A stretch of DNA of 63,074 bases, counting the filler, from Sanchytrium tribonematis (lineage: Eukaryota): assembly GCA_018985235.1 (NCBI GenBank). It is 14 parts of 14 records of this genome, joined end to end, with 100 filler letters (N's around TTAATTAATTAA, not from the genome) between each part and the next. Parts side by side here need not be neighbours in the genome. Positions count along the whole stretch, not along the records: positions 1 to 4,492 come from JADGIG010000718.1; 13 more parts are not named here. The stretch is one strand, 5' to 3'. Below, piece after piece: positions 1 to 54,168 of the stretch. The notes under the pieces were generated by a model. The model was not told the DNA's origin. It ran no database searches and worked only from the letters and a program-made list of their open reading frames with translations. Within the stretch, counting starts at the first letter, position 1. Every line of letters begins with the position of its first letter. Both the position numbers and the translations under genes were made by a program.

Positions 1-2058
1 GCTAGGAAGACCATCCAGATTAATAAAACCAATCCGAATGTTGTCAATTTCTACCAATTCAATTGGTTTATGCATTTGTATTTGTTTTAAACTAATTTGA
101 AGATGATTCGCGTAAACAATCCTGGAATTGCGGTCTCTTAGATTTGAAGGTGCAGGATTGGTAGAGGATTCCACGTTGTTACCAGCAAGAATGTGAAATG
201 GATTACGATTTCGGGTCCCGCCATTCATTTTGCCGGTTAAGAATAGAACATCGAGATTCTTTGGTTTATATTTATGTTGTCTAATTCTACGACTAATTGA
301 CAGTAATCTCAACTTACCATTAAACATCCAGGATGGAACAATGTCTGCCAAACAAGTCCCTGCTTTAAATTGTATTATATATTTTTGTTTAAGTGTAAAT
401 GCCCGAATCTCTAAAAGACAATTTTGGTGTGAATTGAGATGGATGCAAGGATGTGTTTTCGAAATCAAATCGAATAATGAAAAAGAATTATTGATTTTGT
501 GATAAGATTGTAATTGATTTAATAAGAAAATGGATAATTGGTGCATTTCACAGGCTTGTTTGAAGGAACTGTTGATGCAAACATTATTAAATTTGATGCC
601 GTATTTTGATCCAAACTCTCCCAAAATGTGATCGGGCAATAATTGTTCCAATTCAATGAATTTGGGGACTATCAAATTGTATTTTTCTCCAAAAATCTCG
701 CAAGAAATTTCAGCATGTCTGGGATTTTCAGGAATGAGTATTACGGAAGAATTTGGTTCAATTACCAACGATGTGTTAGTCACTTCTCTTAAATTTGAGA
801 CACATCTTGAGATTTGAAATTCATCTAAGAGCATCTCAAATGTGGTTTTATAATCAAGAGAGATCTGTTTTGATATCCCGTCATGAGTCAACTTGATTTG
901 TTTCAAATTTCGATTGTTTTGATTTGGTTTAATGGTGACATTATCATTGGTTGCTGAGCCATCACCCATGTCATTGAGATTATCCAAAACTTGATTTAAA
1001 TCTCCATCTGAACTATTATCTGAATCCATCCCATGCATTGAATTTGATTGAGAATTTTTAAATGTCTCAGCAAGACTGCGAATTTTCACTTTTTGTCTCT
1101 TTGAAGTTTCGATGTCCGTTTTAACTTTCAACAAATAACGACATGCTAGGAAGTTATCGTCTAGCAATTCAGCAATTCTTAAATAAAATTTGCTTACTTC
1201 ATTGGAGTACTTATTGTCCCACTTGCTAGTCTGAATTTGATAAGCTAAAGTGGCCGTCATATATTGTAATCGTTTTAATTCGCGAATTTTGATGTCTGAA
1301 TTTGATTGAAGATGAGAAATCCAGTCCCGATGTGAATAGATCTTTAATCGGTGGTACTGGGGAAGATCGGAATCTTTTTTAAAAGACTTGAGTGCGTTAA
1401 CAACGTTATTTGATTTCGATTTTACCATTATCACCTCCATCAGCTGATTTTGATGAATAAACTGAACTTGTGGAATAAGTTTGGTGTCTATGCCTGCCTG
1501 TGCAGCAATTGCAACTTTAATAGAATTGCAATTAACAAATCCATTCGGGTCAACATCATGAAATGGCATTCCGGACACGATAATTTGATCTAGAATAGAG
1601 GATTTATCACCAGAAGCGTGCATTTGAAGATGCTTTTTGGCTTTGTCATTGACTGGACTGTTGTTGTGTATCATGTGTAAACCGGAAAAGTCAAATTTAT
1701 GTAAAACGATATCTGTTGTACTTGTTTCAAATATCTGTGATTGGTTCCAAGAAATGCAAGGAGAATGAGTTATTTTTGATTGGATAAAAGGAAAATCACG
1801 GTGGGGCGGCAATTTACAGATTTTCGAAATTTTTACGATCAAGTTATTTTCATTTAAAATGTCCTTTTTGACTAAATTTGCAATTTTGAGTCGATTTTTG
1901 GATATTTTAGGATGGAATTGTTTAGATTGTTTGTAGATTTGTGGTTCACATGAAACTGATTTGCGGGAACAAAAAGGAGTAGGTTTCATTCCATTTACAT
2001 TGTTATCTGTCATAATCTTCTTAAAAGCATATCGTAAACTTGCTTGCAAAACATCCAT
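1..2058 (-). mobile_element. Probable APE-type non-LTR retrotransposon, 5' part: single ORF of at least 686 aa (ORF1-like region, ubiquitin-like domain(s), start of APE endonuclease), running off the contig end
   Basis: I checked codon by codon: no stop from ATG 2058 to position 1 (absent from the ORF track because it has no stop). It ends IRIGFINLDGLPS, matching APE/EEP motif I (hxhxxxNhxGh). QIIVSGMP...VIMVK...LKIY resembles LINE ORF1 RRM-type motifs. LDVLFLTGKMNGG resembles a Ubl C-terminus. Confidence 0.65.
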
Positions 2059-3218
2059 GCGAAATACTCATTTTTGGTGAATTTTTGGTTCTCACTAGTG
2101 TTTGAAATGCGGTCAAGTTGTTCTAATAACTTTGCTTTTGTTTGGGGTACCACAAAAAATTTTAAAACACACAAATTCTTTTCAAGATCACTTTATTTTC
2201 TAATTACTTAGGCAATATCTGTTATCACACCAATAAAGCATTTCAAAACTATTACTTTCACGCCAATTGGTGGCGAAACTGTGTCACCATTGACTTGAAA
2301 AAATTATTCAAATTTCACAGAAACTTAAAATTAATCAAATACGATGCAAGTATCAACAATTCTCTTAATGATGACTCCAATTATAATCTCATTATCTTGC
2401 ATTCACCTTCAATATCAATTATTAAACATCAATGAGTACCTAGCAGCCAAGAAATTAAAGAGTATCTAAATTTACATCCAGAATATCATATTGAATGAAC
2501 AGCATATAAATCCAATAAATTTATTAAATATATGCTGCCTTGATTCCAAACAACCTGTCACCTATTTTACTATTTGAAATCCATGTTTGACATGAACTAC
2601 TTCGCTGATTTTAAATCGCAATCCAGACTTGATATAATCCATCTGACTCATATTAAGTCACCATCTATCCTCATAAATATTATCGTTTACTAAAAGGACC
2701 ATTTGGAGGATCTAAACAAAGAGATTTGATCTTAAGTGAAGAAAATTCAACAAATATGAGAGTGCTGATGATAAAATAATAATAGACTCAATAAATGATA
2801 TTTACTGTTCTGCATTACCTTCCGAAAGAAATATGAATCAAGATACTGCTCCTAAAAGAACCAAAACTAGTGAATTTTTCTCATCATATTCAAATACGGA
2901 TTCTACAGATCCTCCAATCAGGGAGTTCTGGTTCATAAAGTAGCACGTTCTGCATCAGAATCAAAATTATACAGATTAACATGAAAAGTTTTATCGCCTA
3001 ATTCATCAGCTTCAAACTGCTTTGATTTGCTAACAATTTCATTGATGCAAACATTCGCTAAAGATTCATAATAAGCTGCAATAAAACCTTCACCTAATCT
3101 TTCATGTGTTCCGAGATAGGTATCTTCTGGTCCCCAGTCCGTTGTATATTGAGTTATTAAACCACCTGACTCTAGCGCTTGGTTGATTTGAGTAAATATT
3201 AATTTCAGAATCTCCTAA

Positions 3219-4239
3219 GGTTGGTTTGGCCCCAACCCCACTTAAGCGACTTTTGTTTCTAGTTCTATGCTGTCTATCAAATAAATATATTTCACGACGA
3301 AGCTCTGGTTATTTTTTAATCCACATTTGTATTGTTGAAATAGTGGTAGTCAGTTCTTCTTCTTGAAGGGTTTTAGAAGCGTTATTGCCATTCTCATGAT
3401 ATTTATCAATGAATTTTGGCTTCTGCTTCATGGTGAACTTTTTACGTATTCCTTTAGATTTATGTTTGCCGATTGGGAGGTTACCAGATGTCATGAAAAA
3501 TAAAAATAAAAAATTCAATTTCAATGCAATTACAGACTCCGATGCATGGATTAACTTTAGATTTTACAAATCAGACATCTGTGAATTGCAGGATTTACTG
3601 GAAATCCCTAGCACAACTAAATTATCTAATGGTTCAGTAGAATCCGGATTAGTTTGTTTATGTGTATTTTTAAAAAGAATGTCTTACACGAACAGATTAA
3701 GCGACTTGTTAGTATATTTTGGAATAGAGCAGTCCAAAGTAAGCCGTATTTGTGATTTTGTGCTTAATCATATTTATTATAACTTCAAATGGCTTCTTGA
3801 TTTCCCCGAACATCTTTTTACCCATGATTATATCACTCTCGCTCAAAATCAGCTTGGATTAGAGCATGCTGTAATTGGATTTATTGACGGTACGGTCAGA
3901 TTTATTCCACGCCCATCAGTGAATCAACGACTTATGTATAATGGTCATAAACGTCACCACGCATTAAAATATCAATCTTGCATTTTGTGGAATGGGCTTA
4001 TTATTCATTTGAGTGAAAAGCATGATATATCAATATTACGTGCATTTGATTTGTTATCAAAATTAGAACATTTTCAAAACATATTTCCAAATATCAAACT
4101 ATTTGTATATGGTGACCCAGCTTATCAAGTTGGAAAACATATCATTTCGCCCTTCAAAACAACAAGCAACACCCGTGAAATGCGATTGTTTAATACTTGC
4201 ATGAGTTCTTTTCGAATCTGTGTAGAATGGGGCTTTGGA
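3219..4239 (+). mobile_element. PIF/Harbinger DNA transposon remnant with 3'-truncated DDE_Tnp_4 transposase (ORF from about 3409)
   Basis: Motifs GFIDGT, YNGHKRHHALKYQ, HD, YGDPAY, FN..MS..RICVEWGFG. The segment before HD (HLSEKHD) looks shortened, and homology stops abruptly at the GAA run. Candidate left end TAA|GGTTGGTTTGG at 3216-3229. Confidence 0.85.
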
Positions 4240-4290
4240 GAAGAAGAAGAAGAAGAAGAAGAAGAAGAAGAAGAAGAAGAAGAAGAAGAA
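4240..4290 (+). repeat. (GAA)17 / (TTC)17 microsatellite
   Basis: Perfect 17-unit repeat read directly. Confidence 0.97.
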
Positions 4291-4368
4291 GGTATTTACT
4301 AACAAAACAATGTCATGGCTTTGTATTCAATCCTATAATAAATCACTCCTTCTTCGCTATATACATAT

Positions 4369-4491
4369 TTACATAAAAGGCGATCCAAATAAATTATTCA
4401 AGTAATATTTGTCATTTGAATAATCTGTCTGCAAGTGTAATCCATACACATAACGCATTGGACCATAAACTCCTACTTCACTAGCATCAAA
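4369..4491 (-). CDS. 3' end (40 codons) of an unknown ORF followed by 78 nt and the (TTC)17 tract; possible retroelement 3' terminus
   Basis: Open frame FDASEVGVYGPMRYVYGLHLQTDYSNDKYYLNNLFGSPFM* from the contig edge. Confidence 0.4.
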   Translation of the reverse strand, partial: FDASEVGVYGPMRYVYGLHLQTDYSNDKYYLNNLFGSPFM

Positions 4492-4492
4492 T

Positions 4493-25662: not shown

Positions 25663-26502
25663 ATGAAAGATCAAATTCATTCTGAGAAAATCGAATCTTT
25701 ATTGAATATTGAGCTACTTTCTTCAGCAGCAGCTCTCAAATTCAATTGGAATATCGAGTTTGCCAAGCGCGTGGTTAAGGAGTATTTCCGTTTTCTTGAA
25801 TTAAAAATACGATTCGGCAATACCGGGAAAAATGAATTCGGATGTGGTTGGTATATCGATAAAATCTGGATGATGCATGCTGCTGATATCAAAGAGTACC
25901 AGTCAGATTGTTACCAAATTTGCGGCTATAGGGTCGAATATAGCGATGGCAATCAGCAGATGCTGGAGCGTTCAATTGAAGCATACAAAATCACAATAGG
26001 AACTCCACCTTATGATATTTGGAGACTATCCCAAAGCACGTACGAGGCTTTAACTCAAGATTCTCCCACATTATCGCAATGGAAACCACGCCTTAAAATT
26101 TGCCTTGAAAGAAATACTATTGTTGAGAAAATCCTTCCTAAGAAAAGCCAATTCCTAATCATTGGAATTAAGCCCCCAACCGGTAAAGCCTTATACTTTA
26201 AGGTCCATCAATATGAAAAATGCTATAGACTCTTTCGATCTTATACTGAAAAAACTAGACTAAGTTTGACTGATTATAAGTTTTGCTTATGCGGAAAAGA
26301 AATTGATTCTACCGAAAGAATCCGCAATTTGAATCTCCAGGCGAAAGGCAGTTGCTTTCAAATTTTACCAAAGAATGACAAAAATGATTGGCAAACTCCC
26401 ACTCCCCCACTTGAACCGCAATTAAATACCAGTAATCCAATTTGTTCCACTAAATTGCAATATACCATAGAAGAAAAAACGTTTCCAAATTTTACTGATT
26501 AA
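25663..26502 (+). CDS. GRDP/DUF1399-like helical domain fused to a SUMO-like domain
   Basis: EY.RFL.LK...ID.IW..H....Y..DC followed by KALYFKV...LF.SY...KF...G..I. Confidence 0.6.
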   Translation: MKDQIHSEKIESLLNIELLSSAAALKFNWNIEFAKRVVKEYFRFLELKIRFGNTGKNEFGCGWYIDKIWMMHAADIKEYQSDCYQICGYRVEYSDGNQQMLERSIEAYKITIGTPPYDIWRLSQSTYEALTQDSPTLSQWKPRLKICLERNTIVEKILPKKSQFLIIGIKPPTGKALYFKVHQYEKCYRLFRSYTEKTRLSLTDYKFCLCGKEIDSTERIRNLNLQAKGSCFQILPKNDKNDWQTPTPPLEPQLNTSNPICSTKLQYTIEEKTFPNFTD

Positions 26503-50627: not shown

Positions 50628-52562
50628 TTACCATTTGGAAGCGTTTTGCATTTCAGATCTTCCAATGTTGGTCACAGCCACTGTTTCTTCAATCAAATCT
50701 TGATCAAGTGGCTCTTTTGAGTCCATAGCCAATGCAACTGCTAGTCGAACAGCATTTTTAATTTGTCGTCCATTCAACGGGTATTCTCCCAACTTCTCAT
50801 AATTCAATTCTTTTACCTCACAATTGACACGAGCAGTCATGTTTTTCCAAACTTGACTTCTTGCTTGAGGTGTCAATGAGGTATATTTTAAAGCAACGGT
50901 GACTCTACTCTCTAAAGCAGGATCAAATTCTGTCACTCTGTTGGTGGTCAAAAATAATATACCAGGATGATATTCCAATAATCTCAACATAACACAAGTC
51001 ATGGCATTTTTCAAAATATCATTGGAATCTCTTTTTTCCAAAAACACATCGGCTTCATCAATTAATGTTAGAGCATTCCAACCGGAACATAATTCCAATA
51101 TTTCAGCCAATCTTTGTTCCATAGTGGTTGGATCAGTTCCAAGCTCTCCCATAGTGACATAATAGAGAGGCTTATGCAAAACTTCAGCAATAGCTTCAGC
51201 GGTTAATGTTTTACCAACACCAGCTGGCCCATGTAGTAAAAATATGGAACCACCGCTTTTACCTTCAATGATATCCTGGACTTGATCGCCTCCAAATCTT
51301 ACCAATGCGCGAATTAATCTTTTTCGTTTTGGATCCAAAACCAACTCATTAAAAGCCGAATCATTAAATTTAATTGGTTTTAATCCTTGGACTAAAACGT
51401 GACACCAATTTTTGGATTGAAAACTGAATCCGACGAGAGCTGGCCAAGTAACACCAAGTAATTCTTTTGGCACGGAACTCAAAATGAAAATACTATCAGG
51501 ATTGCTGCTAGATTCACCTAATGATTTTTGCTCATTTTTATATCTCTTATATCTTCCAGTAATCTCAATTAATGCATGTGTGGCATCATCCATTCCTTGA
51601 GATGCATGGTGGCCTAAAGCAGCACCTCTGACAACATCAATCATAATTCTACCAGGTGTTTGGACGATGTTTGGCTTACTTTGATTTTTAGCATGTGAGT
51701 GCAAAAAGACACAACCAGCATCGTGTTGAAGGTACTTGGATTCACCTTGTCCCAATGCCACGTATTTTTCACCACTTTGTACAAATCTTTTCAAAATAGC
51801 TTCATCTACTGGCGCATAAAACATTTCATTTATCTTTCTGTTTGCTTCTCCCATCCATCTGGAAAGAACGACTTCGAATTGCACCACAGTAAAATCTGCC
51901 CCTAGTGTTACAACGTACTGCAATTCCAAATGAAAACTTTGCTCAAATCCAAATAAAGATTTGCGTTCTTGGAAATAGGATTGAACTACTCTAAATCCTG
52001 CAGGGACTCCAAGTGAAGTAATGCCACGTACAATCAATCCTGGTTTATATAACTCAGACAAAGCATCAAAAACAATTGCGTTGTCTTTGATAATTTGAGC
52101 ATAATATTCCAATTGTGACTTGTGGACATTTCTGATTTCTGCTTTAAGCTCATCTAAACCCGGGACAGCTAATGGCGTATTTGGTAATTTGATCTGAAAC
52201 CCTAAACCACTCAAGCCTTGGACAACTTGAAATTTGATGTATCTGTTAAAATAGATATCATCCTCAGGCACTTTTTGCTCAATCCCCTTATTATATTCAT
52301 TAATCATGTAAGTCAACCAGTCTAAGCGACCAAGAATGTAAAATAAAAACTTGGATTGAATTTGACTAGCCTGCTTCATGCTTGTAAAAGAACGGACAAT
52401 GGATCTCAAGGGAAAGTGATTAGGCGTCTCACATGGAACATCAGGGAAAACAAAAATTGACTCTGAGTCATTCTTCTCAACTTTAAAATACTTTGACATA
52501 TGTTTTAGGGAGATAGGCGATAATTCGTTTAAATGTTGGAAAACGTTATAAACTCGTGACAT
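50628..52562 (-). CDS. Fungal-type single-domain AAA+ ATPase (start 52562 or 52499)
   Basis: LLHGPAGVGKTLTAE, LIDEADVFL, FLTTNRV..FDPA..SR, LNGRQIKN. Confidence 0.92.
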   Translation of the reverse strand: MSRVYNVFQHLNELSPISLKHMSKYFKVEKNDSESIFVFPDVPCETPNHFPLRSIVRSFTSMKQASQIQSKFLFYILGRLDWLTYMINEYNKGIEQKVPEDDIYFNRYIKFQVVQGLSGLGFQIKLPNTPLAVPGLDELKAEIRNVHKSQLEYYAQIIKDNAIVFDALSELYKPGLIVRGITSLGVPAGFRVVQSYFQERKSLFGFEQSFHLELQYVVTLGADFTVVQFEVVLSRWMGEANRKINEMFYAPVDEAILKRFVQSGEKYVALGQGESKYLQHDAGCVFLHSHAKNQSKPNIVQTPGRIMIDVVRGAALGHHASQGMDDATHALIEITGRYKRYKNEQKSLGESSSNPDSIFILSSVPKELLGVTWPALVGFSFQSKNWCHVLVQGLKPIKFNDSAFNELVLDPKRKRLIRALVRFGGDQVQDIIEGKSGGSIFLLHGPAGVGKTLTAEAIAEVLHKPLYYVTMGELGTDPTTMEQRLAEILELCSGWNALTLIDEADVFLEKRDSNDILKNAMTCVMLRLLEYHPGILFLTTNRVTEFDPALESRVTVALKYTSLTPQARSQVWKNMTARVNCEVKELNYEKLGEYPLNGRQIKNAVRLAVALAMDSKEPLDQDLIEETVAVTNIGRSEMQNASKW

Positions 52563-53236
52563 CCTTATATGCCCAATAGACTCTGCAACGTTAACAATCG
52601 TGTGATCAAATATTAAGTGAAAATGAGTATCTCGCAATATTTTTAACAGAATGATGTCAAGTTGACATTATGATGTTGACAATGTCAACATCATGTTAAG
52701 TTTCTCAATAATATTTAGAAAATAATTTTATTGTTCTGAACCACCAGCTGCATTCGTGTCGGAAAAATCTGGCAAATCACGGAAAAATTTGATGAGGAAT
52801 TGCGAGGACTTGGGCATAAATATAATTTGGAATTTTTGAGAATAATTGAAAGCGTAAGAAGATATAGAATAATGCAATCTATTAAATAAACTTTTCGTTC
52901 AAAAAATTTCAGGTTTTTACTAAATCATGCTCGATATATTCGAGACAAAAAAACTCGCATTCAGTACTCTATATGTTGTATAACTTCCAGTTACACTCAA
53001 AAATTAGCCTGCTTTGTACCAAATATTTCTCGGCAACCTATTTTTTTGTCCAAATTTTTCCGTGATCGTCGATAATTGTCATCATGACTAAATTCCACTC
53101 GAATATAAAAAGGAGCTTTATATGGACATGTTGCCATTATTATCTTATAATAATTGGCTGATATGATAGATAATAATAACTGCTCGGCTTAAAATTTTAG
53201 GCCATGGTATTTAAGCCGACTGTTGCAATCTCAATA

Positions 53237-53473: not shown

Positions 53474-53669
53474 AATCATTTTCCAAATATAATTGTGAAA
53501 ACTAACATTACGTTGATATCATTCTGTTAAAAACAATTAGATATACTCATTTTCACTTAATATTTGTTCACACGATTATTAACGTTGCAGAGTCTATTGG
53601 GCATATAAGGATGTCACGAGTTTATAACGTTTTCCATTTAAACGAATTATCGCTATCTCCCTAAAACAT

Positions 53670-54168
53670 ATGTCAAAGTATTTTAAAGTTGAGAAGAATG
53701 ACTTAGAGTCAATTTTTGTTTTCCCTGATGTTCCATGTGATACGCCTAATCACTTTCCCTTGAGATCCATTGTCCGTTCTTTTACAAGCATGAAGCAGGC
53801 TAGTCAAATTCAATCGAAGTTTTTATTTTACATTCTTGGTCGCTTAGACTGGTTGACTTACATGATTAATGAATATAATAAGGGAATTGAGCAAAAAGTG
53901 CCTGAGGATGATATCTATTTTAACAGATATATCAAATTTCAAGTTGTCCAAGGCTTGAGTGGTTTAGGGTTTCAAATCAAATTACCAAATACACCATTAG
54001 CTGTTCCGGGTTTAGATGAGCTTAAATCAGAAATCAGAAGTGTCCACAAGTCACAATTGGAATATTATGCTCAAATTATCAAAGACAACGCAATTGTTTT
54101 TGATGCTTTGTCTGAGTTATATAAACCAGGATTGATTGTACGTGGAATTACTTCACTTGGAGTCCCTG
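53670..54168 (+). CDS. Second, inverted copy of the AAA ATPase 5' region (3' truncated; possibly a pseudogene)
   Basis: Near-identical to 52001-52499; upstream 3-nt and 1-nt deletions break the longer N-terminal frame. Confidence 0.75.

Follow-up and report, generated by a model that had tools for sequence, protein, structure and literature searches.

The first contig of the analysed stretch of Sanchytrium tribonematis DNA (63,074 nucleotides, here called the window) carries a 686-residue open frame that is likely the cut-off front part of a long single gene from a LINE-type element. Our preferred reading, to which we assign a rough probability of 0.4, is a single-ORF LINE whose polyprotein is processed by a host protease at the Gly-Gly (GG) end of a ubiquitin-like (Ubl) domain. 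The window joins 14 contigs of about 4.4 kb each through N-containing spacers (N44-TTAATTAATTAA-N44) and is not one locus; the contigs are sorted by length, and adjoining ones are unlinked. The frame lies on contig 1 (window 1-4492; 4,492 nt) and runs off the contig edge. Its features, and those of its other copies, are the following.

1..2058, minus strand: single open frame of 686 aa, 3'-truncated by the contig end (translation).
1951..1990, minus strand: 40-nt stretch (M24-S36) common to other copies (records of depth 180 and of depth 146, the latter with a loose end behind 1990).
498..1950, minus strand: segment aa 37-521, missing from other copies (joint 497->1951, 3-nt microhomology).
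1135..1662, minus strand: N-terminal domain, aa 133-308 (homologous to the domain that opens single-ORF APE-RT proteins).
904..1047, minus strand: acidic/Asn-rich linker, aa 338-385 (read directly from the sequence).
514..903, minus strand: possible further beta-beta-alpha units without GG, aa 386-448 and 450-515 (speculative, from a model with pLDDT 32).
217..414, minus strand: Ubl-like segment, aa 549-614 (homologue P0004, a weak model and an Atlas lead).
217..222, minus strand: Gly613-Gly614, proposed processing site (sole Gly-Gly in the ORF; kept in P0004).
40..216, minus strand: linker of 59 aa from GG to motif I, poorly conserved (comparison with the P0004 tail).
1..39, minus strand: stretch resembling APE motif I, aa 674-686, at the edge of the contig (motif-I scoring).

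Direct translation of the minus strand from position 2058 to 1 gave 686 residues free of stops, which bears out the run of uninterrupted codons claimed in the initial annotation; the chance of an equally long open random frame of the same composition is P ~5e-24. As the contig stops at window position 1, the frame has no 3' limit there, and the 3' end of the element lies beyond the contig. The frame's lack of a stop codon would explain why an ORF track passed it over. Candidate start codons are M1 (2058), M16, M24 (1989) and M129, the last of which lies about where the relatives P0002, P0003 and P0005 begin. Pfam searches at E<=10 with the full 686-aa ORF and five pieces of it returned no relevant family, and PDB sequence searches with the ORF and the alignments A3, A6 and A7 gave no relevant match. 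An Rfam scan of contig 1 was likewise without a match, and tblastn together with a motif search located no second piece of the element within the window. Elsewhere on the contig, a remnant of a DDE_Tnp_4 (Harbinger-type) transposase (window 3409-4302, plus strand; E 3e-13) ends in a GAA microsatellite, and many diverged repeat contigs from the sequencing run X1 cover window 2990-4480.

The N-terminal domain links the frame to LINEs. Exhaustive search of 1.84 billion representative proteins yielded three matches at E<=0.001 (P0002, P0003 and P0004), and the first two of these match aa 133-308 with E values of 2e-7 and 4e-7. P0005 was found in a follow-up search as a third relative matching the same region, and a profile built from P0002, P0003 and P0005 scored the domain of the window ORF at 61.9 bits. 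These three are ENA metagenome proteins with 21-24% identity to the window ORF over the homologous domain; in each of them the domain comes first in a single ORF and is followed in frame by endonuclease and reverse transcriptase. Pfam detected RVT_1 in P0002 and P0005 (E 1e-24 and 1e-25, respectively), RNase H in the same ORF of P0005, and weak Exo_endo_phos matches in P0003; the best PDB matches of P0005 are LINE-1 ORF2p, in an alignment that begins in the endonuclease. There are thus single-ORF LINEs that open with this domain, and the window ORF is most likely one of them; its APE and RT very probably lie beyond the contig end. The idea that the element is a single polyprotein, put forward in the initial annotation, gains from a domain common to single-ORF APE-RT proteins. 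A general role of a Ubl-GG release site is opposed by the same three APE-RT relatives, all of which lack the Ubl-GG in front of APE.

We call the first domain ORF1-like from its position, and its appearance by eye suggests an RRM and helical make-up; for the four homologues no RRM match was obtained in Pfam or PDB sequences. ORF1p of the L1 type (type II) consists of a coiled coil, an RRM and a CTD, and LINEs are known to exchange and vary their ORF1 modules (PMC4120745, whose main text does not contain the word 'ubiquitin'). Like L1-type ORF1p, the window domain stands 5' of APE, and to the eye an RRM-like alternation gives way to a helical region; unlike it, the window domain has no Transposase_22 or RRM match and shares one ORF with the presumed ORF2 part, not standing in an ORF of its own. 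Further searches covered other protein sets. A follow-up word-seeded search returned five proteins, among them P0006 and P0007, which are generic APE-RT proteins and were used for motif I only. A word-seeded search with the ORF among proteins of 1202-3430 aa found no relative, nor did one with alignment A5 among proteins of 96-875 aa, which was insensitive in that P0004 itself was not recovered. Locus scans of metagenome contigs, viral contigs and prokaryote genomes gave no relative.

The relatives differ from the window ORF at the boundary that precedes APE. P0002, P0003 and P0005 start about 128 residues later, are devoid of the Ubl-GG and have a hydrophobic stretch at this boundary. No GG is present within 60 residues of APE in any of the three, and the single-ORF organisation in the group therefore does not need GG. 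The hydrophobic stretch spans 19 residues with a Kyte-Doolittle value of 1.5-1.9, as compared with a peak of 1.0 in the window ORF, and ends in a small-x-Ala pattern (A-H-A or V-S-A); it occupies aa 293-311 in P0002, aa 293-308 in P0003 and aa 294-312 in P0005, between the first domain and APE. By hydropathy it looks like a signal peptide that carries a peptidase site, and alternative processing or membrane anchoring is possible at this point. The 2A motif DxExNPGP is absent upstream of motif I in P0001, P0002, P0003, P0004 and P0005.

The C-terminal portion of the frame has a different homologue. Residues 518-620 match P0004, the S. tribonematis protein EP00834_P002483, with 35% identity over 113 columns and z=20 against shuffles. 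Identity reaches 11/20 columns through GG compared with 19/55 in the earlier columns, and after GG the similarity to the P0004 tail is not significant (p 0.11-0.19). The Gly-Gly at aa 613-614 (positions 222-217), the only one in the 686-aa protein, is kept in both sequences, within the tails GKMNGG (window) and GNMRGG (P0004). P0004 follows the order of the window ORF from the Ubl-like segment through GG and a short linker to an APE motif-I-like stretch; it differs in being 175 aa long, in lacking the ORF1-like domain and in its stop a few residues past the motif-I-like stretch.

A segment following the ubiquitin pattern had been described upstream of motif I. Such a segment is present at aa 549-614 (positions 414-217) and ends in GG, but the resemblance to ubiquitin is one of pattern, without a detectable sequence match: aa 544-618 hit 0 Pfam families at E<=10, the ubiquitin clan included, and PDB sequences gave no match for the ubiquitin-like segment. 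As a control for the Pfam search, the SUMO-like domain of a host ORF elsewhere in the window (25663-26502, plus strand) weakly matched Rad60-SLD at E 0.013. The tail of ubiquitin itself is LRLRGG (PMC4822132), from which the window tail GKMNGG differs and to which GNMRGG of P0004 is closer.

A structural model of aa 541-618, computed from the two-sequence alignment, had a mean pLDDT of 56. At this confidence it places strands at aa 546-553 and 558-565, a helix at 570-579 and a last strand at 602-607, after which Gly613-Gly614 follows in a free tail; the middle (aa 581-599) is disordered and basic. The order of modelled strands and helix fits a beta-grasp. Foldseek with this model found no match at E<=0.001, and the best Z in VIA-align was 3.0, ubiquitin being absent from the leading matches. 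In the ESM Atlas the top match was an unnamed cluster without a family (0.85), and ubiquitin/SUMO-like clusters scored 0.81-0.84 in four of the six rows shown that had a family set; with a longer query, eight of the ten best family-bearing matches shared a family or clan. These scores lie below 0.9, and shuffled proteins reach 0.8 one-third of the time, so that the Atlas result is read as a lead only. From the model and this lead we consider that the GG-ending segment probably folds as a beta-grasp. A single-sequence model of aa 374-686 reached pLDDT 32 only, and the units that it suggests at aa 386-448 and 450-515 resemble neither one another nor the GG unit in sequence in internal-repeat tests. 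We do not propose an array of tandem Ubls, as all comparisons among the three candidate units and the post-hydrophobic segment of the relatives were non-significant.

The motif-I-like stretch begins at aa 674 (position 39), 59 residues past GG. Scored against motif I of the five APE-bearing proteins found in this analysis, the 10-mer at aa 674 is the best in the ORF and the 6th of 17,787 10-mers in the open frames of the window. The APE motif I proposed for the last 13 residues, beyond which the contig gives no more of a putative APE, is well placed, but the 10-mer is not significant alone and has no Pfam match. The best motif-I-like 10-mer of P0004 likewise lies C-terminal to its GG. BLAST pairs the motif-I-like stretch of P0004 with window 70-99 (minus strand; aa 654-663) and not with aa 674-686; aa 654-663 may represent a degenerate second copy of the first strand of the endonuclease.

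Other copies of the element, which the initial annotation had recommended looking for, were found in run X1, a single sequencing run that is probably the source sample and not independent support, and in which contig depth does not equal copy number. Positions 468-1980 and 1961-2989 are covered without differences by run contigs of depth 32. The sequence at 1-497 is repeated: a run contig of 1,112 nt and depth 136 covers it with 15 differences and continues 615 nt past position 1, beyond the end of the window contig. The further copies stand at about 4x the flanking depth, depth being a rough guide, and several diverged copies of the element are present in the genome. Five of the 15 differences are synonymous and 10 non-synonymous, none is a stop, and the ratio does not differ from the neutral one (p 0.20). 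In the other copies G613 carries a synonymous change, and G614 and motif I are unchanged. Conservation of the GG, which had been named as a check, is therefore seen in the distant homologue P0004 and in other copies of the same run, with two independent sequences (window ORF and P0004) behind it.

The other copies also lack aa 37-521. A joint 497->1951 at depth 141 skips 1453 letters with one letter between its sides, the shorter of which has 30 letters. The missing segment amounts to a net 1,452 nt, or 484 codons, with 3-nt microhomology at its ends; the frame is kept, and the gap takes out everything but the leader and the GG unit. Sequence common to the other copies starts one base before the M24 codon. 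Upstream of 1990 the other copies differ and carry, three codons ahead of the ATG, a stop in the same frame, as read from 30 loose letters. From the depths (180 ~ 146 + 32) we infer that the short contigs link into one form, and this abundant form would comprise the leader, Ubl-GG, linker and motif I, much as in P0004. The window copy may be the intact ancestor or may have gained the ORF1-like module; the change could have gone in either direction. An intron in place of the skipped segment was rejected, as no GT-AG pair fits the observed joint. The skipped segment (window 498-1950) has 5-nt inverted ends, probably by chance.

In the mechanism that we propose, the ORF would represent the 5' half of the polyprotein of an APE-type LINE with a single ORF. 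A deubiquitinase or Ubl protease of the host would cut after Gly613-Gly614 of the likely Ubl domain, freeing the presumed APE-RT part from the ORF1-like part. Two products would then come from one translation: an ORF1-like piece that binds RNA and has Ubl-GG at its end, and a free endonuclease/RT whose N-terminus is defined. The short copies, without aa 37-521, would produce a leader-Ubl-GG-APE(-RT) protein, with the ORF1 function provided in trans or not at all. The overall probability was built from a LINE assignment that we hold to be very probable, a Ubl fold that is probable, and cleavage that, given a beta-grasp fold, appears somewhat favoured; these steps are partly linked. A Ubl di-Gly release site, as suggested from the sequence at the outset, agrees with the retention of GG in P0004 and in the copies and agrees less well with the P0004 stop just after motif I. 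Processing of C-terminally extended Ubl precursors by DUBs and ULPs, which read the C-terminal tail, is described in PMC4822132, and the relevant point in PMC13517186 is the FUBI-eS30 precursor.

Other readings of the frame must be set against this one. A single-ORF LINE could carry a real Ubl that stays uncleaved as an interaction, folding or proteasome-targeting module, its GG being a relic or a flexible hinge. Such a module is favoured by the departure of the tail from LRLRGG, the two further possible beta-beta-alpha units without GG, and the relatives that manage without GG. Uncleaved Ubl domains usually lose their GG, however. The conservation with P0004 moreover peaks at the GG tail and falls after it, the tail being the part that the proteases read (PMC4822132), and we regard an uncleaved Ubl as rather unlikely. 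The segment might also be some other small beta-beta-alpha domain, for example one that binds nucleic acid, with GG shared by descent only. On its side are the lack of a match to ubiquitin in Pfam, PDB sequences and structural comparison and the disordered, basic middle of the model (aa 581-599), yet the strand-strand-helix start, the final strand and the GG spacing fit a Ubl, and the Atlas look-alikes of both queries, which count as one source of evidence, are mainly ubiquitin/SUMO clusters. We consider a non-Ubl domain distinctly unlikely.

It is quite unlikely, in our estimate, that the sequence is no autonomous LINE at all; on that reading a family of short Ubl-GG genes, lacking a complete APE-RT further downstream, received an in-frame ORF1-like insertion, and the result is a chimeric or domesticated repeat. 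The P0004 stop just past motif I and the greater abundance of the short form speak for such a family; the 3-nt junction match is compatible with a target-site duplication no less than with deletion microhomology, and the P0004 N-terminus is so weakly similar to the skipped segment (p 0.03-0.35) that the direction of change could be either. Against a chimeric repeat stand the motif-I-like stretch after GG in both proteins, the continuation of the repeat for 615 nt past the contig end, and the identity of the part gained or lost, which is itself a domain linked to LINEs and stands in the order expected. A released Ubl-GG could, finally, be conjugated to proteins of the host or of the element and serve as a modifier, or as a decoy against ubiquitin/SUMO-based silencing. 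E1 enzymes activate a free C-terminal GG, and the short copies would give a nearly free Ubl; but the surface is far from that of ubiquitin, with no sequence match, which makes use by the host E1 doubtful. We hold the conjugation reading to be very improbable.

Processing at Ubl-GG, the reading that we prefer, has counterparts in known systems. 2A peptides occur upstream of APE in LINEs, and a single ORF with its N-terminal functions made as a separate product has been proposed for such elements (PMC3708506, PMC3894237). The window ORF shares with these 2A-bearing single-ORF LINEs the one ORF and a putative separation signal just before APE; it differs in the lack of DxExNPGP, its proposed signal being post-translational proteolysis at Ubl-GG. 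The 2A elements are also mostly without ORF1, whereas the window ORF carries an ORF1-like domain in the same frame. In cytopathic pestiviruses, captured ubiquitin acts as a processing signal before NS3 that is cut by cellular hydrolases (PMC8310069, PMC13517609), and UCHs cleave Ubi-NS3 (PMC8310069). The window ORF is similar to BVDV in placing a Ubl ending in GG within a polyprotein, and in BVDV the host ubiquitin hydrolases give the replication enzyme its exact N-terminus. The BVDV insert, however, is a recent, near-identical capture of a host ubiquitin mRNA, whereas the window segment is highly diverged, has no ubiquitin sequence match and is common to distant elements, and its cleavage is predicted. 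More tentatively, and somewhat improbably in our judgement, a single-ORF LINE lineage of early-diverging fungi may possess its own old, diverged Ubl as a host-protease site between ORF1 and APE-RT, with a signal-peptide-like stretch at this place in sister elements, so that host processing routes would be interchangeable as in RNA viruses.

No Ubl-GG processing site in a LINE was found in the literature consulted, the scope of which left aside most subscription papers, Repbase reports and supplements. The separation of LINE ORF1p and ORF2p, and their ratio, are known for two-ORF elements, and some single-ORF elements use 2A ribosome skipping. If the proposal is true, Ubl-GG would add a third way, which acts after translation and relies on the ubiquitin system of the host. 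Retrotransposition would then be tied to DUB activity, for which GG versus AA is a simple test, and the natural in-frame short copies, together with the different boundary module of the sister elements, make the comparison direct.

Other parts of the window hold sequences of their own. Ribosomal L44, encoded on one of the other contigs, has fungal entries as its two best PDB matches, and we take the host to be a fungus-like microbe. On one contig the 5' part of an AAA-ATPase-like gene is duplicated in inverted orientation (window 52001-52660 and 53513-54168; 516 nt, 98%). Eukaryotic genes are found on other contigs, including CYFIP, a class C GPCR and ribosomal L44 and L27A.
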